Shown here: positions 53,632 to 63,341 of the stretch, piece after piece
Numbering within the stretch: position 1 is the stretch's first letter
Layout of the letters: each line of letters starts with the position of its first letter
Program-made: the position numbers and the translations under genes
NCBI GenBank assembly: GCA_963714085.1
Contig: OY970229.1
Coordinates: forward strand, 416,001-480,000
Reading direction: 5' to 3'
From: an uncultured Candidatus Micrarchaeota archaeon
Lineage (GTDB): Archaea; Micrarchaeota; Micrarchaeia; Anstonellales; Bilamarchaeaceae
Length of the DNA: 64,000 nucleotides
Notes under the pieces: model-generated
Database searches by the model: none
Told to the model about the DNA's origin: nothing
What the model saw: the letters and a program-made list of their open reading frames with translations, nothing else

Positions 53632-54408
53632 ATGTTATCACAACATGCGGGTGGTTCATTGGCTAAGAACAGGAAAGTATCAAGAAAGAAGACGGCAAGA
53701 CCTGTCGCCTCGAAGATGAAAGTGAAGGGCAAGACCAGGGTCGCCGCCAGGCCGCTAGCCAGCAGGAAAAGGGCCAAAATCACCCTTGCCAAGGCGAAGA
53801 AGACCACGAAAAAGGCCGCCCCATCGAAGAACACGGTCAGGGCGCCGATACTGTTCTCAGCCAAGAAGCAATCCATAAAGATCGTCAGCCCCACGAAGGC
53901 CGCCACCCCGGAGCAGAAGGCCGAGGTGGAGCACATCCACAGGATCCTTTCCGACGCCTATGTCAGGCAGATGCTGATAGAGATAGGCGGCGAGAACGCG
54001 CTCGAGATAGTGAGGCACTTCTACGGGAGCCACAGCGACGAGGAGCTCGCCAAGTCGCTCCAGCTCAGGATCTCGGACGTGCGCGCCACGCTCAACAAGC
54101 TGCACAGCAAGGGCCTAGTGCAGTACGCCCGCGAGAAGGACTCCGAGACCGGATGGTACTCGTATTCCTGGTCGTTGAACAAGGCCCGCATAGTGAAATG
54201 GGTGAGCGAGACCGCGCTCAAGGTCGCTGCCAACGCCGCGGGCGGGGACGGCAACCAATACTATTTCTGTCCGGCCTGCGGCCTGGGGTCCATCATGGAC
54301 TTCGGCGCGGCCACGGACAAGGAGTTCCGCTGCAACAAGTGCAACAAGTCCCTGGAATTCATCGAGGAGGAGAGGTTCTCGGTGATAAACCAGGTCCTCA
54401 GGAAGTAA
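53632..54408 (+). CDS. tfe: Transcription factor E (alpha) with long Lys-rich N-terminal extension
   Basis: [37 protein letters not shown] Zn ribbon; start may be TTG 53659. Confidence 0.9.
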
Positions 54409-54820: not shown

Positions 54821-57355
54821 TCAGACCCCTTTGAACTCCTGCACCATCTTCTCGAGCTCCGGATAGGTTAGCAACATCACCGAATTGGCCTCGACCTCCA
54901 GCTTCATCACGAGCGGCGCCTTGGTGATGGAGTTGAGCTGGCCCGCGAACTCGCCCTTCTCCACGTCGTCCTTGAAAAGCACGATGGTGATGCCCTTGCT
55001 GAGCGTAGAGAGCGCCCTCGTGAGGACGTCCGCGGCGTTGGTCTTGTCGTAGAAGTGCAGGAACATCTGCTGTCCTACCACGGTTATCTCGCTGTCGCAC
55101 ACCTCTGATTCGCCGAGCTGGGTGAAGGGTATCGCGTTGTTGACGCAGATGTCCCTCAGCTTGCGGAGCATCGCCAGGTAGCGCACGCTGTGGCCGGCCT
55201 TCGGCTCCCACTCCTCGAGCCCGTAGTAGTCGAGGAACTCCTTCACCTTTTTCATCCTGACGAGCTGGTTGAGCAGGAACTCGGTGTTGTAGTCGGTTAT
55301 GAATATCGGGTTGCCCCGGAAGTACATGTTCTTGAACCCGTTCTTCACCTCGCTCGCCACCAGCGGGGTGTACTCCCACCTGTAGGTCGTGTTGACACGG
55401 TCGAACACGGACAGCACGGCGTCTGTGGTGAGCGGTATCTTGGTGCGCGAGACCGGCGGGAAATCAGGCACGTCGATGGAGAAGAAGACCTGCTCCTGCC
55501 TGGCGAAGTACAAACCCACTCCCATTATGGCCCCTGCGAGCAGCACGACCAGCAGGAGGCCGGGCGGGAACGGAGGCGGCGGTATGGGCCTGTAGTAGGA
55601 CGCGGTCTTCTGGAAGTTCCCGGCGGTGAATGCGAACGTGTGGTTGCCGTAGGAGAGCGCGTCTCCGCCGCTGTACTGCGAGATGTCCACGCTCAGAGGG
55701 CCTGCGGAGACGCCGCTGAAGTCCTTCTTGAACTTACCGCTGTCCAAGTCGACGCTGAGCGTATCGAGCGTGATCGGAGTATCCACCTGGAATATGTAAA
55801 TGGAGGGCTTCGCGCCCTGGGTCGGCCCGGTTATGGATATGGACTGCACGTCCAGGTAGGTGGAGGCGTAGACCTTGCCCGTGTCGTCCTCCAGGCTGAC
55901 CATGTACTCTCCCTGGTCGAGGGGGATCTGCACGTCCAGATTGGCGTTCTGGGTCTGGGTGTTCACGGTGCCCACTGGGGTGCGCAACACCTCGGTGCCG
56001 TTCAGATCCATGAATGCGAGGGACATGGATGGCGATGCGGGGGTGGGCTCTGCGAGATTGGCGTTCAGCCTTATCACCCCGCCCGTGATGTTGGTGTTCG
56101 TGATGGTGAGCTGGGGCGTGTAGAGCTCGCCGAGGGAAGACTTGCCCACGTTGAGCACCTTCATGTCCTGGAAGGATGAGCCCCTGGGCGTGAGGCCGGT
56201 GAACGACACCTTGACGCTGCGTTTCACTCCGTCGTAGGGCAGGCTGAAGAACTGCTGCGTGCCTGAGAGGCCGGTGGACAGGTTGTCTGCCCTCAGCGTG
56301 TAGGTCGAGCCGGCGTTGTCCGGCACCGCCCATGGCGTCTCCACGACTATTCGTGCGATGTCATGGGCTGCCGCCACCGGGTCCGAGCGCCAGCCGCCGT
56401 CGATGGTCTGAGGGACCATGAGCAGCGTGCCGTTGCCGAAAGGGAGCACGGAGACGCATCCGTAGGCCATCGCGGCGCCGTCCACCTGGTAGAGCGGCTG
56501 GAAGAGCGTGAAATTGTCCGTGCACGTGGGCGAGGCCGTCTCATCGAAGGATATCTGCAGGGACGCGTACACGTCCTGGGGCGTGGTTTGCACGAGCGTG
56601 CCGTTGAGCATGGACTTGAAGGACTGGCCGATGTACACCACGACCACGCCCTCGTTCATCAGGCGCATGATGCTGCCATTGCCGGCCAGCAGCTGCTCGG
56701 GGACCACGCCTGACGGGATTATCACCTCGGCGCCCCTGGGCACGGTCTCCAGCTGCTGGAAAGATATCTCGTCGAGCACCACGCCCGTGCTGCCCAGATC
56801 GCCGCGGAGCGCGGTGAGGAAGTCCGAGTAGCGGGTCGCCTCGATCCGATTCGAGTTCAGCACGAACACCTGCGTCGGCAGCTGCTCGGGGTAGGTCTTG
56901 AGCGAGATCGTGTAGTTCATGATCCCGCTGGTGTTGTAGTTTATGAAGAGCATCGCGACGTGGTCGTTGCTGCCGCGGGACGCGGCGCTGATCACGCTGC
57001 CGGAGATTATCTTGTTGGACAGCGACGCCTTCTCCACGGGCTGGACCTGCGTGTACCCGGGGGATATGTTCGGCATGAGTAGCATCAGTCCGGCAACCAC
57101 GAGGATGATGGCGATCACGAACGCAGCCGCGATGGGCAGCAGGTTGAATCCGCCGGGCGCAGGCGCTTCCTTGGCCGGGCCGGAGGCTGTGGGCGTAGCC
57201 GCCTTCTTCGGGGCCAGGAACGCCTTGAGGGAGTCCCTGAGCTTGTCGAGCCCGCTGCGCGCTATCACCTTGTAGCGCAGCACGTACTGGTATCGCTTGT
57301 GGGCTTCGAACTTGTATATGCCCCTGCGGATCTTCAGTGCGCCTATCTCGACCAT
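54821..57355 (-). CDS. Two-TM membrane protein with large extracellular domain (ATPase operon gene 5)
   Basis: TMs near aa 72-93 and 598-617; N-glycosylation sequons between them. Confidence 0.82.
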   Translation of the reverse strand: MVEIGALKIRRGIYKFEAHKRYQYVLRYKVIARSGLDKLRDSLKAFLAPKKAATPTASGPAKEAPAPGGFNLLPIAAAFVIAIILVVAGLMLLMPNISPGYTQVQPVEKASLSNKIISGSVISAASRGSNDHVAMLFINYNTSGIMNYTISLKTYPEQLPTQVFVLNSNRIEATRYSDFLTALRGDLGSTGVVLDEISFQQLETVPRGAEVIIPSGVVPEQLLAGNGSIMRLMNEGVVVVYIGQSFKSMLNGTLVQTTPQDVYASLQISFDETASPTCTDNFTLFQPLYQVDGAAMAYGCVSVLPFGNGTLLMVPQTIDGGWRSDPVAAAHDIARIVVETPWAVPDNAGSTYTLRADNLSTGLSGTQQFFSLPYDGVKRSVKVSFTGLTPRGSSFQDMKVLNVGKSSLGELYTPQLTITNTNITGGVIRLNANLAEPTPASPSMSLAFMDLNGTEVLRTPVGTVNTQTQNANLDVQIPLDQGEYMVSLEDDTGKVYASTYLDVQSISITGPTQGAKPSIYIFQVDTPITLDTLSVDLDSGKFKKDFSGVSAGPLSVDISQYSGGDALSYGNHTFAFTAGNFQKTASYYRPIPPPPFPPGLLLVVLLAGAIMGVGLYFARQEQVFFSIDVPDFPPVSRTKIPLTTDAVLSVFDRVNTTYRWEYTPLVASEVKNGFKNMYFRGNPIFITDYNTEFLLNQLVRMKKVKEFLDYYGLEEWEPKAGHSVRYLAMLRKLRDICVNNAIPFTQLGESEVCDSEITVVGQQMFLHFYDKTNAADVLTRALSTLSKGITIVLFKDDVEKGEFAGQLNSITKAPLVMKLEVEANSVMLLTYPELEKMVQEFKGV

Positions 57356-57367
57356 CGCAAATCACGC

Positions 57368-58168
57368 CTATTTGAGGACTTCCAGGTAGCCCTCGCCGAC
57401 CAGCCTGTTGAGCATCTGCTCGACCCTGGCCTCCGGGATCTTGTACACCTTGGTGAACTCGATCACGTTTATCTCGCCGTTGTGCTCCATGACCCACTCT
57501 TGGAGCTTGGCCTTGAGCGCGTCGTCCGACAGGACCTCGAGCGCCTGGACCCGCAGCTGCATCTCGTCGTTCGAGGCCTTGAGCTCGTAGTTCTTCGTGG
57601 TCAGCGCCTCGGACTGGTCCTGGAGACGCTCGACCTTCTTGCGCAGGTCGTCGGCGTCCTTCTTCATGGAATCGTAGGCGGTGTAGAGCTTGGAGTAGTC
57701 CATGGTCACGGACTCGAGCAGGTCCTTAACCGCGGCCTCGATGAGCTGGTAGAGCACCTTGTTTTCTATCGGGTATGACGACTCGACCAGGGTGAGGATG
57801 TTGAGCAGGTAGCGAATGACGTCGAGCTTCCTCTTCCTGGGCGCGATCTCGGATGGTATGGAATACAAGACCTCCAGCTCGTCCTTCTTCAGCTTGAGTA
57901 TGGAGAACAGGTAGGGGTTCTTGTTTATGTCCCTGGACTCCACGTAGACCACGTTGACCGCGTCCTTCTCAGGAGCGACCTCCAGGAACGAGATGGTGCG
58001 CAGCGTGTCCGATATGTCCTTCGCCGTGCCGATCATCTTCGCCTTTATCTTGAATCCGTCGACCTTCGGCGTGAGCGATGCCGCGCCGGCGGCCGGCTGC
58101 GCTGCGGCTGGTGCGGGTTTCGCGGCGCTACTGGCCGCTGCCGCCGGTTTCTGCTGTGGTGGCGCCAT
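57368..58168 (-). CDS. Coiled-coil protein with C-terminal (broken) winged helix (operon gene 4)
   Basis: Heptads MKKDADDLRKKVERLQDQ; C-terminal LQEWVMEHNGEINVIEFTKVYKIPEARVEQMLNRLVGEGYLEVLK. Confidence 0.82.
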   Translation of the reverse strand: MAPPQQKPAAAASSAAKPAPAAAQPAAGAASLTPKVDGFKIKAKMIGTAKDISDTLRTISFLEVAPEKDAVNVVYVESRDINKNPYLFSILKLKKDELEVLYSIPSEIAPRKRKLDVIRYLLNILTLVESSYPIENKVLYQLIEAAVKDLLESVTMDYSKLYTAYDSMKKDADDLRKKVERLQDQSEALTTKNYELKASNDEMQLRVQALEVLSDDALKAKLQEWVMEHNGEINVIEFTKVYKIPEARVEQMLNRLVGEGYLEVLK

Positions 58169-58175
58169 GTATCAT

Positions 58176-58646
58176 CTACCCCTTCTTCCCGGACGGCTTC
58201 CTCGCCCCGGGTGCTGGCTTCCCCTTGCTCTCGATCTCCTCTAGCGCCTCGGGGAGCTTGGGCTTCCCTGCCTTGGGCCCCTCGCCGGGCCCCTTGTCCA
58301 GGGCGGGCGCGTACTTGAACACTATCGCGAAAAGCAGTATGAAGAGGCCTATGAGTATGGCCGAGATGAACGCGAATATGTCGAAGCGGCCGGACATGAT
58401 GATGGTGAGCACCAGGAGTATGACGACCACGGCCGCCAGGACTCCGAAGAGCACGAGCGAGCGCTCGAACTCCTTCCTCCGCTTGTCGTGGACCGGTATG
58501 TCGTCCTCGCACACGTAGAGCTCGTTGTTCTGCGCGATGTTGAAGGCGGACTTGACCTTCCTGATGGAGCGGATGATGGCGTCATCCTTGACCGGTACCG
58601 CGCTCTTGCCCTCCACGTCCTTCTGGCACACTATGCAGATCCGCAT
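58176..58646 (-). CDS. Small membrane protein with N-terminal Cys motif and two TMs (operon gene 3)
   Basis: CIVC...LYVC, two hydrophobic helices, basic tail. Confidence 0.8.
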   Translation of the reverse strand: MRICIVCQKDVEGKSAVPVKDDAIIRSIRKVKSAFNIAQNNELYVCEDDIPVHDKRRKEFERSLVLFGVLAAVVVILLVLTIIMSGRFDIFAFISAILIGLFILLFAIVFKYAPALDKGPGEGPKAGKPKLPEALEEIESKGKPAPGARKPSGKKG

Positions 58647-58650
58647 GGCA

Positions 58651-60243
58651 TCAACCCTCGAGGACGACCTGGGTTATCTCCTTGGCGCCGCCTTCCGTCT
58701 TCCTCATGTCCACCTTGCCGAACACGTTGATGATCGTGATGTCGTCCAGGCCCGTGTCTTTGAGGAAGTCGCCGATGTTCCTCCTCGCCACGCCGAACCG
58801 CTCGAGCGTTATCACCAGCGACACGACGTCCAGGTGCCGGTTCTTCTTCTCGAACATCTTGGTGAGCTCCTCCACCTTGTCGTCCCCGAGCCCGAACTGC
58901 CTCATCTTGCGCCTGAAATCCTCCTTGATGAATGAAACGCTTTTGGCCATGTTGACATCCCTCTTCTGCTTGACGCTCATCACTTCGTCCAGGTCGAGGA
59001 AGAATTCCTTCGCCGGCTCCTCTCCGATTATCTTCTCCAGCAGGAACGTGGATGGGTATGGGGTCGGGGTGGTCAGGGCCATGTTCACGGCCGCCTCGCC
59101 GACACCCAGCCTTGATATCTCCTCGCGCATGTAGTTGGAGAAGTTCAGCGAGCCCTGGAGGTAGTCCAGGAACTTCTCGAACTTCACCTTGAGCATGAAC
59201 GTGGTGCCGACGTTGGAGAATATGGCCTCGGATATGTCCGTCGGGTTCTGGGAGGCGACGATCATGCCGAAGTTGTACTTGCGTCCCTCACGCACTATCA
59301 TGACCAGGTCCGAGTTCTCGTCCTTCGCGATCTTCCACGCCTCGTCCACCACCAGTATGAGCCGCAGCCCCTTCTCGCTGGACCAGCCGGAGAGCCGCAT
59401 CTTCTCCTTGGCGAACTGCATGAGCGTGAGCGCGGCCATGGCCCTGAAGGTCTCGTCCGGCAGGCCAGAGAGGTCCAGGTCCACCAGCCCGGACGTGATA
59501 AGGTCCTCCAGCTTCACAGTGGACTGCTGGGCGAAGAAATCCTCGCCCGACTTCGTGTACTGCTTGAGCCTGTAGATGGCGTTCTCCAGCTCGGCCGGGA
59601 ATTCGTAGGTGCCCAGCGATGCCTGCTCCTCGAGCAGACGCACGACGTCCTTGAGCGTCGGGGCGGTGAGCGACTTGCCCAGCTCGTCCTTCTGCTCCCT
59701 CGCGTCCATGCGGTACTTGGCCTCCACGTAGGCCTTCTCCATGGCCTGCTCCGTGAGCCGCTTCTGCTCCGGGTAGTTCGCGATGTCCGTGAGCATCTCC
59801 AGTGTGCGCATTATCTGCTTGAGCCTGTCGTAAGGCTTCATGCCGCCCAGGTCCAGTATGTTGAGGTAGGAGCCCTTGCCGAGGGATATCACCTTGCCCC
59901 CGGTGTCCTTGACCCAGGGCTTGTATTCCCCGGCCCAGTCGAATATGAGCGCGTTCGCGTTCCACACGAACGCCGCGCGCAGCAGGAAGGTCTTGATGAA
60001 GTAGGACTTCCCAGAACCGGATATGCCCACAACGGCTATGTGCGGGTTGGGCACGTTCTGGTAGTTCCAGTAGAACGGCGCGTGGAATATCTTGGTCTTG
60101 CCGATGAAGATGGAGTTCGCCGGGTCGTCGCACAGGACGGAGAGCGGCGGCTCTGGGGGGTAGACCAGCAGGTTCCTCCTGCTGAGCTCCCGGTTCGAGA
60201 CCTTGAGAACCTCCAGCTTTCCGCTCAGGACCATTGTAAGCAC
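58651..60243 (-). CDS. VirB4/HerA/CedB-like P-loop ATPase (operon gene 2)
   Basis: NPHIAVVGISGSGKS, IFDWAGEY, LVVDEAWK, REGRKYNFGMIVASQNPTD; start GTG 60243 or ATG 60234. Confidence 0.9.
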   Translation of the reverse strand: MLTMVLSGKLEVLKVSNRELSRRNLLVYPPEPPLSVLCDDPANSIFIGKTKIFHAPFYWNYQNVPNPHIAVVGISGSGKSYFIKTFLLRAAFVWNANALIFDWAGEYKPWVKDTGGKVISLGKGSYLNILDLGGMKPYDRLKQIMRTLEMLTDIANYPEQKRLTEQAMEKAYVEAKYRMDAREQKDELGKSLTAPTLKDVVRLLEEQASLGTYEFPAELENAIYRLKQYTKSGEDFFAQQSTVKLEDLITSGLVDLDLSGLPDETFRAMAALTLMQFAKEKMRLSGWSSEKGLRLILVVDEAWKIAKDENSDLVMIVREGRKYNFGMIVASQNPTDISEAIFSNVGTTFMLKVKFEKFLDYLQGSLNFSNYMREEISRLGVGEAAVNMALTTPTPYPSTFLLEKIIGEEPAKEFFLDLDEVMSVKQKRDVNMAKSVSFIKEDFRRKMRQFGLGDDKVEELTKMFEKKNRHLDVVSLVITLERFGVARRNIGDFLKDTGLDDITIINVFGKVDMRKTEGGAKEITQVVLEG

Positions 60244-60251
60244 CTATGCGA

Positions 60252-61067
60252 CTAGATGGTCGCCTCCTCGAGATCCTGCGGAGTGACCGGGAAGAACCTC
60301 TCCCATTCGAAGCATTTGAGCATCTCCTCGCCTTTTAGCCACTTGACCTCCACGTTCAGGGCGTTGGAGAGCACGGTCATGAGCTCGTTCGCCTGCGCCT
60401 TGGCGGATGCGGTGGCGCCCTCCTTGCTCAGGGCGGCCGCCGTGGTCATGGCATAGGCGATCACACCCATGGGCTTCACGCCCTTGATGAGCTTGTTCAG
60501 CTGGAGGTCCCAGTGGGCGACCTCGCGCTCGTACTTGTCTATCTTGAGCACATCGGCGTCGGACTTGTCCCTCTCGCGGGCAAGGCGCAGCTGGGCCTCC
60601 GCCCGCTTGGTCTCTATCTGCTTCCTCTTCTCGCCGATGTCCTCCACGTAGAGCATGTACGCGATCTTGGTGACGTATTTCAGGTTGGACACCGCGCGCT
60701 CGAAGAACTCGTTGTAGGCGATGTTCTCCTCGGTCGCCTTCTCGGTGGCGGACTCGAATATCTTGATGCCGAGGAAGACGCTCGCGTAGTACACGCCGTT
60801 CTCCATCTGCTTCACTATGACGTCCTCGCCTGCGGGGATCTCGTAGCCCCCGTCCATCTTCATGATTATCCTGGTGCGCTCCGTGATGATCGGGATGAGC
60901 AGGTAGCCGTATTTCCAGAAGATGAATGTGCCGAAGGCGCCCAGTGCGCAGAGTAGGGCACCTATTATCGTCGCGCCGCTCGAGCCCTGGCCGAACATGA
61001 AAACGAAGACCAGGCCTATCACCGCGGCGCCTAGCGAGCCGTATATGAACATCTTTCCTTCTGCCAT
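60252..61067 (-). CDS. Two-TM protein with coiled coil, resembling a detached VirB4 N-terminal/TraC-like domain (operon gene 1)
   Basis: Two N-terminal TMs, alpha/beta region with helical hairpin, directly upstream of the ATPase. Confidence 0.72.
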   Translation of the reverse strand: MAEGKMFIYGSLGAAVIGLVFVFMFGQGSSGATIIGALLCALGAFGTFIFWKYGYLLIPIITERTRIIMKMDGGYEIPAGEDVIVKQMENGVYYASVFLGIKIFESATEKATEENIAYNEFFERAVSNLKYVTKIAYMLYVEDIGEKRKQIETKRAEAQLRLARERDKSDADVLKIDKYEREVAHWDLQLNKLIKGVKPMGVIAYAMTTAAALSKEGATASAKAQANELMTVLSNALNVEVKWLKGEEMLKCFEWERFFPVTPQDLEEATI

Positions 61068-61168
61068 ATGGATACCTCGCGTGGTACGTGCTGATTCTGA
61101 TGGACTTAATGGGACTATATTTAAAAAGAGTATCGGCAGCGGCGTACCCTACGTGCCATGCCAGCACG

Positions 61169-61202
61169 TTTATAAACTCTTTGCCACTAATTATAACATA
61201 TG
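61169..61202 (+). promoter_or_regulatory. Duplicated promoter (TTTATAAA box) of paralog A
   Basis: 34 bp matching 62321..62354 with 1 mismatch, ending at the ATG. Confidence 0.75.
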
Positions 61203-62276
61203 CTCGTCAAGTATGCGCCCCCAGCCCAGGGCAGCCGCAGCAGCATGCGCACGTGCGAAACCTTTGAGGCACGCATAAGGATGGTTCAGGACCCTTCCTC
61301 GCCTTACAACGGCATGGTGGAGCGGCTGCAGCCGGTCGCCAAGGGCTCCGGAGACCTGGACTTCGAGATAAGGGTTGCACGATTGTACCATCTGGCCGGC
61401 CCGTCCAGCTCCTTTTGCCACGTCGCCAGGTTCCTGGCGCTGAGGGCCGCGAATGCCCTGTTCCCGGGCAACATCGTGGACGCCCGCGAGCTGCGCATGT
61501 TCAGGGAAAGCGGCGTGCTCCATGCCGCCACATACTCGCCTTTCGTGAGCGATGACAACGGCGTGATTGAGAGGCGCGGGGCTGCGATGCGCGAATTTTA
61601 TGCCACGGAGTTCAGCGACTCTATGGCAAAGCTGAGATTCGTCGAAGCAAAGGACACGATCGAACGCGAACTGAATCCTGAGCTGAGATTCCTTCCGCGC
61701 AGAATGAAGGATGCCGGGATAGAACCCAGCCATCCGGAAATGAATTATCATCTCTCCAAAGGGGCGACGGTGTTCTTCGAGATAGACGGCATTGACCTGG
61801 GAAAGGCCGCCACTGCGGCGCTGGATGCTGATGCGGATGACCAGAATGGCAAGCCTGCGATGGAGGCCGTTGCGGCGATATACGCATTGCTCGTGCACCT
61901 GGAGGCGAGGCAACGGATAAGGACGCAAGCATGGTACGGCCAGACGGAGACTGAACGCGATGCAATGAGAGAACGGTACGAGACTACGGCGGATACTCCA
62001 CCGTCGAGGATATATGAGCTCGTTTTCAATCTGGTGTCCGACACTGGCAACAGCTCGGCAATCAAACTACCTGAGACGTTCATCAGGCTGGGGCTTCTCC
62101 AGCTCGCCGCGGGCACTGAGGGCGCCTTGTTACAGATAAACCAGGGCGAGAGAATGGCGGATTGGGGAACCCCGGCGCCATTCCCCGTCGACCCGGCCGT
62201 CATCGCGGCCATGGATGACGAAAAATACGAAATCAGGAAAGAAAAGCGCGAGCCGCTTTATCCTAGCGGGCTCTAG
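61200..62276 (+). CDS. Hypothetical protein, tandem paralog A (possible divergent kinase-like fold)
   Basis: Shares RFLALRAA.ALFP.NIVD.RELRM, FVSDDNGVI and AGI..SHPE.NYHLS.G.TVFFEID with 62352..63341. Confidence 0.78.
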   Translation: MLVKYAPPAQGSRSSMRTCETFEARIRMVQDPSSPYNGMVERLQPVAKGSGDLDFEIRVARLYHLAGPSSSFCHVARFLALRAANALFPGNIVDARELRMFRESGVLHAATYSPFVSDDNGVIERRGAAMREFYATEFSDSMAKLRFVEAKDTIERELNPELRFLPRRMKDAGIEPSHPEMNYHLSKGATVFFEIDGIDLGKAATAALDADADDQNGKPAMEAVAAIYALLVHLEARQRIRTQAWYGQTETERDAMRERYETTADTPPSRIYELVFNLVSDTGNSSAIKLPETFIRLGLLQLAAGTEGALLQINQGERMADWGTPAPFPVDPAVIAAMDDEKYEIRKEKREPLYPSGL

Positions 62277-62320: not shown

Positions 62321-62354
62321 TTTATAAACTCTTTGCCATTAATTATAACATATG
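62321..62354 (+). promoter_or_regulatory. Duplicated promoter of paralog B
   Basis: Near-identical to 61169..61202. Confidence 0.75.
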
Positions 62355-63341
62355 ATTATAAAGTATGCCGGCCCGGTCAGGGGCGGGCGCGAGCTCATGT
62401 GCAAAACCGATGAGGCGCAGGTGAGCAGGATACGCGGCTCGTCCGCGCGCTACGAAGGCATGGTGGAGCGCCTGCAGACAAACGCAACCGTGGGCAGAGA
62501 CCATTCTTTCGCGATAAAAGGCACTAACGGCGATTACCACGGCAACCCCAGGAGCTACGAATACCGGGTCAGCGCTGAGAGTTGCATCTACCACTTCGGC
62601 AGGTTCCTTGCGCTAAGAGCCGCCAGGGCCCTGTTCCCGGACAACATCGTGGATGTCAGGGAGCTGCGCATGCGCAGGGAAAACGGCGTGCTCTATTCCG
62701 CCACGTACTCGGATTTCGTGAGCGACGACAATGGCGTGATTAAAAGGCGCGCCGATACGATGCGCGAATTCTATGCCAGGACGTTCGCGAGCGAGGATGC
62801 CCGGAGGCGGTTCGTTGCGGCAGCGGACAGGGCGGAACGCAGATTGAATCCGGACCTGGAGCCGCTTTCAAGCAGGATCAAGGAGGCTGGGATAGGGCTC
62901 AGCCATCCGGAACAGAATTACCATCTGTCCGATGGAACAACGGTGTTTTTCGAGATAGATGATATCGACCCCAAAAAGGTCGCCACTGCGGCGCTGGAAG
63001 CGGGCGCCAAGCAGGCGATAAAGGCCGTTGCGAATATGTACGCACTGACTGTGAAGCATATTGCGGTATTGGAGATGTTCAAGGATAATAGCAATAGATT
63101 GTTCCGGAATGTGGCGGATACGGCCTTGCCTTATACGTACGGCTACGTTCTGGAGATTCTGTCCAATCCCGAACTCGATAAATACGATTGGATAGCCCAT
63201 CCGATGGAATTCATAACCGGGGACGTAGTCGCGATTATGAGGAATCTGGGGGTGCCTCCGGCTCGGCCCCTGGTCGGGCTGGGCATTGACCGCATCTTGT
63301 ATGACGAATGTTACGAAATTGCGAAAAAGGACAAGCCCTAG
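62352..63341 (+). CDS. Hypothetical protein, tandem paralog B
   Basis: Paralog of 61200..62276 with divergent C-terminus. Confidence 0.78.
   Translation: MIIKYAGPVRGGRELMCKTDEAQVSRIRGSSARYEGMVERLQTNATVGRDHSFAIKGTNGDYHGNPRSYEYRVSAESCIYHFGRFLALRAARALFPDNIVDVRELRMRRENGVLYSATYSDFVSDDNGVIKRRADTMREFYARTFASEDARRRFVAAADRAERRLNPDLEPLSSRIKEAGIGLSHPEQNYHLSDGTTVFFEIDDIDPKKVATAALEAGAKQAIKAVANMYALTVKHIAVLEMFKDNSNRLFRNVADTALPYTYGYVLEILSNPELDKYDWIAHPMEFITGDVVAIMRNLGVPPARPLVGLGIDRILYDECYEIAKKDKP

Follow-up and report, generated by a model that had tools for sequence, protein, structure and literature searches.

We describe a five-gene operon encoding what appears to be the motor part of a hitherto undescribed relative of bacterial conjugation machines. 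The operon (genes G1 to G5, positions 54,821 to 61,067) lies in a 64,000-nucleotide stretch of DNA, hereafter the window, which corresponds to positions 416001-480000 of the single-contig, 1.57-Mb genome of an uncultured Candidatus Micrarchaeota archaeon; the named relatives of this genome are nearly all Micrarchaeota. A first-pass annotation had proposed a domesticated channel resembling a type IV secretion system (T4SS), with a role in host contact and with VirB4 divided between a membrane-bound N-terminal protein and an ATPase. Our analyses bear out the split: G1 corresponds to the N-terminal half of VirB4, anchored in the membrane, and G2 to the ATPase half, and the two occur together with VirB2-like pilins and an array of six paralogous membrane proteins. 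The VirB4 N-terminal domain, VirB4-superfamily ATPase, and VirB2-like pilin by which a T4SS is recognized are all found here. A T4SS-derived architecture is very likely, and the operon is probably the motor and accessory half of a domesticated, chromosomally fixed T4SS-like machine of Micrarchaeota. The T4SS-like architecture of the proposed channel, in which the VirB4 N-domain, pilin, and array are inherited together, is largely supported; its role in host contact is one that we infer.

The clearest link to conjugation machinery is G1 (60252-61067, minus strand; 271 amino acids). The protein harbors two N-terminal transmembrane (TM) helices, with hydrophobic segments from residues 7 and 32, and a VirB4 N-terminal (TrsD-like) α/β domain into which a coiled-coil hairpin is inserted. 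When the AlphaFold2 model of G1 (pLDDT 88.8) was compared with 48,161 chains, the top fold match was TrwK/VirB4 (7o42_A; Z 9.4, rmsd 3.5, 164 residues aligned), which covered the whole soluble part, and in the rows after TrwK the coiled-coil hairpin alone was matched. In the Foldseek search, the 11 listed rows above rank 15 are all R388 TrwK or inner-membrane-complex entries, the best with an E value of 1.4e-3, slightly above the significance line. Alignment by hhalign to six VirB4 N-terminal halves, drawn from plasmids and from an island in the same genome, gave 91.7% with an E value of 7.9e-7. Compared singly, two plasmid N-terminal halves gave P values of 0.0026 and 0.0057, and the PrgI-TrsD protein of the island gave 0.15, which is not significant. 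The G1 alignment had no informative match in Pfam or among PDB sequences. Its profile found 277 clusters among 1.84 billion proteins; of 10 distant clusters looked up, one carried taxon names, all of them Micrarchaeota. Two tandem G1 paralogues are present in 22 of the 79 Micrarchaeota loci that we fetched around the ATPase.

G2 is read from a GTG at 60243 (58651-60243, minus strand; 530 amino acids) or, more probably, because its homologues are 527 residues long, from an ATG at 60234 that yields 527 amino acids. The ATPase motifs named in the first-pass annotation are present, GISGSGKS at residue 73, DEAW at 300, REGRK at 318, and ASQ at 330, and the Walker A, Walker B, and REGRK motifs of the operon ATPase are invariant over 55 aligned rows. 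Pfam matches over the cut-off are DUF87 (the HerA central domain), which is the best, P-loop_TraG (41.3 bits, cut-off 25.8), AAA_10 (40.8 bits, cut-off 27.5), and FtsK_SpoIIIE. NCBIfam ranks CedB (79.3 bits), CD1110 VirB4 (73.8 bits), and CedD (72.6 bits) above archaeal repair HerA (50.4 and 37.9 bits), all far under their cut-offs. The best PDB sequence matches are HerA-type proteins, with a VirB4-like chain seventh. Judged by these motifs and profiles, G2 is a P-loop ATPase of the VirB4/CedB/HerA superfamily. A homologue search with the ATPase alignment gave 1258 matches, the best 120 of which are close relatives. The protein ends in a helical domain (residues ~432-530, starting at Met432) that is complete in the source genome. 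In distant loci this domain is a stand-alone 100-amino acid gene and the ATPase lacks its last strand; the C-terminal domain of G2 appears to have arisen by gene fusion.

The operon ATPase, by its sequence, is not an orthologue of repair HerA. A separate HerA is encoded in the same genome, at position 657894, and groups with the HerA proteins of other Micrarchaeota. In a careful tree of 20 rows, chosen from the 36 rows of a FastTree run and holding no CedB or TedB rows, the HerA proteins form a clade of their own (100/100) that excludes the operon ATPase, while the operon ATPases and their second paralogue form another (100/100). Moreover, Walker A stands at about residue 73 in the operon ATPase and at 166-202 in HerA, which leaves no room in G2 for the HerA N-terminal domain. 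As to the VirB4/CedB placement anticipated in the first-pass annotation, the FastTree run, from which one ATPase of this genome was left out for want of a motif match, puts the operon ATPases on the VirB4 side (SH 95), but the careful tree does not decide between VirB4 and HerA (68/42). The VirB4 identity of the ATPase rests on G1 and the gene context more than on the tree. Prediction of a complex between the ATPase and G4 scored 0.00 in two runs and was used neither way. Among relatives, the ATPase gene of one locus (L096:799-4323) harbors an insertion of ~650 amino acids near Walker A, the size of an intein; two genomes (G006 and G116) have long open ATPase frames of 1050 and 1067 amino acids; and in another locus (L057:9956-11587) the ATPase is in two pieces, by assembly error or decay.

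The arrangement of the operon is widely conserved. Across 151 genomes of the phylum, a tally that counts the source genome and the unpublished G029, 132 encode the ATPase at E<1e-130, two at ~1e-100, nine give weak matches, and eight give none. The order G1-G2-G3-G4-G5 is retained in 67 of the 79 fetched loci, as the conserved synteny proposed for the operon would have it, and is thus not a chance arrangement. Ten of the 12 exceptions end at a contig edge before the missing gene; the other two (L109 and L114) have no G4 or G5, although the sequence continues for 3.3 and 10.3 kb downstream. Co-occurrence was assessed with four profiles (G4, the G5 tail, the array, and the pilin), which were run on 61 of the other 150 genomes, namely 42 ATPase-positive genomes across families and every one of the 19 whose ATPase match was intermediate, weak, or absent. 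The G4 and G5-tail profiles matched in 42/42 of the former and 0/19 of the latter, the array and pilin profiles in 42/42 and 3/19. The three are G145 (89% complete), with eight array matches, and G146 and G148, in each of which a single array gene and a single pilin accompany an ATPase match of intermediate strength. None of the four profiles matched in 16 genomes from six families that are 89-97% complete; of 18 genomes in these families (f12, f13, f16, f18, f19, and f20), the system went undetected in 16. The first-pass annotation had spoken of a DPANN machine; our data show it for Micrarchaeota only, in most of the phylum and not in six sampled families. A second G4 copy is present in 17 of the 42 positive genomes, and in genome G103 the pilins, array, ATPase, G4, and G5 fall within ~16 kb of one contig.

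A complete machine would need more than these five genes: they supply its motor half, while genes for the pilin and the candidate channel are found at other sites in this genome and directly upstream of the operon in distant relatives. A second, reduced cluster in the same genome (780822-783762) encodes paralogues of G1, the ATPase, and G4, and the wider locus (L115, 778903-783762) adds an oppositely oriented membrane gene and, at 778903, a multi-TM gene whose protein has paralogues in two six-gene arrays, at 669904-677450 and 1240826-1248396. In 10 of the 79 loci, a tandem run of six intact paralogues of this family immediately precedes the G1 pair; two further loci (L103 and L104) have arrays that are broken or cut, and their fragments reflect assembly error or decay. 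When array genes were assigned to positions by profile, five of the six genes of the 1240826 array, and two of the six in the 669904 array, matched their own position, the former suggesting six fixed, non-equivalent subunits. The array carries large external domains. From its topology, its position, and a pilin-like N terminus, we infer that the family is VirB6/CedA-like.

Small pilin-like genes are found upstream in nine of the 79 loci, where they precede the array (L097, L100) or G1 (L085, L086, L088-L091, L093). In the source genome they are unlinked to the operon, lying at 889987 and, three together, at 1144782-1148202, and across genomes they are multi-copy, with 1-9 matches each. Against Pfam T4SS_pilin and TrbC, four of ten members match (best E 1.3e-6); the sole PDB match is TrwL, with an E value of 0.12. 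The pilin is homologous to the N terminus of the six-paralogue family (92.8%, E 3.9e-7), and the same homology is reported for CedA1 and CedA (PMC9905601). Further genes were noted elsewhere in the genome. The array at 669904 is flanked by a 1533-amino acid Cys-rich exported protein (665302-669903) and a 1133-amino acid exported protein (677501-680902; L119). At 223639-226218 (L118), unlinked to the operon, an 859-amino acid ATPase has five predicted N-terminal TM helices and CedB as its top NCBIfam match (69 bits); this TM-anchored ATPase is possibly a coupling-protein-like factor. A separate, mobile-looking island at ~285000-300000 (L117), with an integrase at 285118, encodes a VirB4 whose tail is nuclease-like by eye, a PrgI-TrsD fusion, a VirB6-like protein, and VirB2 pilins.

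The three remaining genes of the operon encode partners that belong to no T4SS family we could detect, and in the searches made none of them matched VirB3, VirB6, or VirB8. G3 (58176-58646, minus strand; 156 amino acids) harbors an N-terminal Cys cluster that may bind zinc, two TM helices (hydrophobic segments at 65 and 90), and a low-complexity tail. Among 62 aligned rows, C4 is conserved in 62, C7 in 58, and C46 in 56; the fourth ligand is variable. There is no Pfam or NCBIfam match to G3 at the cut-off. G4 (57368-58168, minus strand; 266 amino acids) has no hydrophobic segment and is soluble, with an N-terminal domain of unassigned fold, a coiled coil, and a C-terminal winged helix. Its profile matches the winged helix of 2xvc_A ("ESCRT-III") with an E value of 0.0027 over 45 residues only, and Pfam EAP30 at E 0.0064, which is below the cut-off; no Snf7/ESCRT-III core family is among its Pfam matches, and in the Atlas it falls in unnamed archaeal clusters only. 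A Cdv/ESCRT role, suggested by that one E 0.0027 match, is kept as a lead only, since winged helices are common.

G5 (54821-57355, minus strand; 844 amino acids, hydrophobic segments at 72 and 600) consists of a TM helix, an external region, a second TM helix, and a well-conserved cytoplasmic winged helix and α/β domain (model pLDDT 87.1). The external region is built of immunoglobulin (Ig)-like sandwiches with an inserted class-I-GATase-like domain of the GH42 trimerisation type; the best fold match is 7vkw_A (Z 12.4, rmsd 3.3, 166 residues aligned, model residues 161-395), with Ig-like matches at ~404-505 and a YceH match (Z 8.0) for 641-717. Eleven of its 12 N-glycosylation sequons lie between the two TM helices. 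The G5 alignment matched nothing under E 0.05 among PDB sequences, and no VirB8 is among the rows listed when the whole model was searched. A reading of the G5 tail as Replic_Relax or as a PD-(D/E)XK nuclease, drawn by eye and from an Atlas score of 0.79 (11% of members), found no support. An unlinked, 631-amino acid G5 paralogue (E 4.8e-21) is encoded at 740993-742888 (L116), beside a 376-amino acid 2-TM protein and a pheS-like gene.

Several observations weigh against a T4SS-like machine. Against a shallow PrgI profile of four sequences, the N-terminal part of G1 gave an E value of 0.14 and G3 one of 0.19, no match to VirB3/PrgI in either case. The six-paralogue family has no match in Pfam, NCBIfam, or PDB sequences, its comparison with the VirB6-like protein of the island yielded a 24-column motif match only (P 0.0055), and its VirB6/CedA-like identity is putative. 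The NCBIfam scores of G2 fall short of the curated cut-offs about ninefold (CedB 79.3 against 700 bits, CedD 72.6 against 600), and by these cut-offs G2 is not a Ced member. In addition, with the support of 68/42 in the careful tree the ATPase could belong with VirB4 or with HerA, and the approximately unbiased (AU) test does not reject its sisterhood with HerA (p 0.31). Finally, the 61 genomes are related to one another and were selected on their ATPase score, so that their co-occurrences are not independent events and describe a coherent inherited module rather than repeated co-evolution.

A lead on expression comes from the co-culture proteome of Microcaldus ARM-1 (PMC11329633, file 1), which lists BCS90994, named "HerA" (56.5 kDa, 33 peptides), BCS90995 (12.6 kDa, 5 peptides), BCS90996 (15.1 kDa, 6 peptides), BCS90997 (28.3 kDa, 21 peptides), and BCS90999 (90.9 kDa, 21 peptides). 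The table does not contain BCS90998; a topoisomerase VI B and a KH protein come next in it, and the rows upstream of BCS90994 are glycosyltransferases, not G1. The corresponding masses in locus L105 are 56.3 kDa for the ATPase, 11.1 for the small domain, 11.7 for G3, 27.6 for G4, and 85.5 for G5, and eight loci have a topoisomerase VI B motif after the operon. By mass and order alone, these rows appear to be the operon proteins. Cryo-tomography of cultured ARM-1 cells shows a 21-nm barrel under the S-layer that docks a host nanotube; the proteins of the barrel were not identified, and its origin from host or symbiont was weighed (PMC11329633). The main text of that paper does not mention VirB4; it does mention thin filaments on ARM-1 cells.

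Taken together, these data are consistent with a machine in which G1 and G2 would reassemble a hexameric VirB4 motor, with G1 anchoring the ATPase ring beneath a membrane platform of six VirB6/CedA-like subunits. The motor would drive assembly of a VirB2-type pilus or channel, G5 could form a glycosylated collar outside the membrane, and the winged helices of G4 and of the G5 tail may act as cytoplasmic adaptors for cargo or motor. As to function, it is reasonably likely that the machine passes macromolecules to or from a partner cell in a contact-dependent manner. Inward transfer would be the likelier direction, because no linked relaxase (MOB families were not searched) or coupling protein was found, and import is favored because the nearest archaeal analogues import DNA (PMC11868833); import from the host specifically is a tentative and somewhat doubtful extension. 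Unlikely, in our view, is a bolder proposal in which some 13-15 genes, carried by most Micrarchaeota, make up a third kind of domesticated archaeal T4SS, its membrane channel a hetero-hexamer of six non-interchangeable VirB6/CedA-like subunits matched to a split hexameric VirB4 motor, that would itself be the ARM-1 21-nm barrel and would pump host macromolecules inward.

The nearest archaeal systems for comparison are the DNA-import systems Ced (Sulfolobales: CedA, CedA1, CedA2, CedB, CedD, CedE) and Ted (Thermoproteales). Like the machine described here, these are chromosomal, relaxase-free archaeal T4SS derivatives with a VirB4-like ATPase and a VirB2-like pilin (PMC9905601, PMC11868833), their multi-TM paralogues have a pilin-homologous N terminus (PMC9905601), and two ATPase paralogues are present in many genomes. 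This shared core, in which VirB4 and VirB2 are joined by multi-TM paralogues and a relaxase is absent (PMC9905601, PMC11868833), raises the possibility of a Ced-like exchange of chromosomal DNA within the species, for repair or recombination and not aimed at a host. For each of the two ATPase paralogues the best-scoring NCBIfam profile is indeed CedB (79.3 and 98.5 bits), and the winged helices of G4 and G5 could bind DNA. For G2, however, the lead of CedB over CD1110 VirB4 is ~5 bits, with both far under their cut-offs. Ced genes are reported to be damage-induced (PMC11868833), whereas the putative ARM-1 orthologues are seen in a co-culture proteome, which is indirect evidence, and the operon is unlinked to HerA, NurA, or Rad50. 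Compared with Ced and Ted, in Micrarchaeota the VirB4 N-terminal half is a separate 2-TM protein, duplicated in the 22 loci noted above; there are six fixed channel candidates rather than one or two; three partners, G3-G5, are added; and the CedB and CedD cut-offs are not reached. We consider a Ced-like exchange improbable.

A pilus-building adhesion apparatus, in which VirB4, the six-subunit platform, and the pilins would make an attachment filament that carries no cargo, is still less probable. VirB4 drives pilus biogenesis in conjugative T4SSs. The multi-copy pilins, the lack of a linked coupling protein, and the large external domains of G5 and the array all accord with such a filament, as do the thin filaments of ARM-1 (PMC11329633). 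Nevertheless, the conserved winged-helix modules of G4 and G5 and the second motor paralogue would exceed the known needs of pilus assembly.

Nor do we favor an effector-export machine that injects proteins into the host, as the T4SSs of Rickettsiales do; no effector candidates were identified, and the loci printed show no VirD4-type coupling ATPase in linkage with the operon. The Rickettsiales T4SSs differ in being diderm bacterial machines with an outer-membrane core and a coupling protein. As an analogy only, these host-dependent organisms have several tandem VirB6 paralogues with large extensions (PMC7648143), which speaks for export. So does the T4SS-like secretion role in host contact proposed for the VirB4/TraG-like ATPases of Nanohaloarchaeota, also DPANN archaea (PMC10266531). 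The likeness to these is by description only: there the ATPase is fused to a giant Ig-repeat protein, whereas here the ATPase is soluble and the N-terminal half and the Ig-domain protein are separate. Effector export is, on this balance, very improbable.

Least credible of all, and highly improbable, is a non-secretory DNA pump of the HerA/FtsK type with an ESCRT-like winged-helix partner, serving repair, segregation, or division: DUF87 and HerA proteins are the best Pfam and PDB sequence matches of an ATPase that shares its superfamily and motifs with repair HerA (HerA-NurA-Mre11-Rad50), G4 resembles an ESCRT-III winged helix, and the AU test does not reject HerA sisterhood, but G1 is a VirB4 N-domain, pilins and array share the gene run in relatives, the operon ATPase lacks an N-terminal extension (Walker A at ~73), forms a separate clade, and has neither NurA nor Rad50 in linkage, a separate HerA is encoded in the genome, and in 16 of the 61 genomes, all of them 89-97% complete, the system went undetected.

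We return to the T4SS-like machine and its place among known systems. A split VirB4 is already known from Firmicutes plasmids and Patescibacteria. In the MPF-FATA class, the split VirB4 occurs in the order PrgI, N-terminal half, ATPase in Geobacillus and Vallitalea plasmids, and Patescibacteria have a chromosomal, mostly relaxase-free set of TrsD, VirB4, PrgI, VirB6, and pilin (PMC12102498), reported as essential for epibiotic growth in one strain (PMC12102498). In contrast to both, the present system is archaeal, its N-terminal half is fused to its own TM hairpin, it has no detectable PrgI, and it has a six-paralogue array and an ATPase clade of its own. It is set apart from known systems by the TM-anchored, often duplicated VirB4 N-terminal half, the six fixed channel candidates, and the three unplaced partners. 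We found no description of the operon in the literature searched, which does not cover subscription journals. PMC8204110, in its accessible part, does not mention VirB4, HerA, or secretion, and its supplementary family tables could list the families unnamed.

The five co-oriented open reading frames (ORFs) are where the first-pass annotation had put them. The gaps between them are 8 bp for G1-G2 with the GTG start of G2, or 17 bp with the ATG start, and then 4, 7, and 12 bp, so that the spacing of 4-12 bp given earlier holds with the GTG start and fails at the first gap with the ATG. The TTTAAA box claimed near 61120 is present at 61125-61120, within a TATA-like box, TTTTTAAATATA (61116..61127, minus strand), ~50 nt 5′ of the G1 start, whose promoter function is putative; GAGGT, resembling a ribosome-binding site, stands ahead of G1 at 61078-61074. 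A comparable T/A box was seen by eye, with no shuffle control, 5′ of G1 in 11 of 11 relatives printed. A scan for sigma-70 promoters and terminators gave nothing above chance.

The setting is chromosomal and non-mobile, as proposed, with housekeeping flanks (NUDIX, TFE-alpha, GT4, PvlArgDC). The window has no match to NurA, AAA_23/Rad50-like proteins, or tyrosine integrases, which sustains that much of the claim that repair partners, relaxase, and integrase are absent from it; Mre11 and MOB relaxase families were not searched. The matches in the genome are all outside the window: NurA at 804723, AAA_23/Rad50-like at 952814, 1554355, and 635549, and tyrosine integrase at 285118, 1288185, and 1308830. 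Replic_Relax had no match over the cut-off genome-wide and none at G5, MOB families being unsearched. With no integrase in the window, housekeeping flanks, and an ATPase found in most genomes of the phylum, the operon is not a mobile conjugative element. Among the neighbors, the TFE-alpha gene (53632-54408, plus strand) has a long Lys/Arg-rich N-terminal extension, and a comparable basic ORF lies near the operon in locus L101. On the other side, two similar-looking ORFs of 358 and 329 amino acids (61200-62276 and 62352-63341, plus strand), with near-identical upstream sequences and no Pfam or NCBIfam match, point away from the operon. In locus L101 a gene resembling, by eye, the purB-like ORF at the window end directly precedes G1, so the two ORFs may have been inserted in a lineage-specific manner.

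These findings bear on the open question of how DPANN archaea make contact with their hosts and draw on them. The operon and the genes linked to it provide named candidates for the 21-nm docking barrel of ARM-1 (PMC11329633). If the proposed machine is real, it would add a T4SS architecture with six distinct channel subunits and would be a counterpart to the domesticated T4SS found in Patescibacteria, so that both great groups of ultra-small symbionts would have convergently reused conjugation machinery. The operon is a testable candidate for how small, symbiotic-type archaea connect to other cells.

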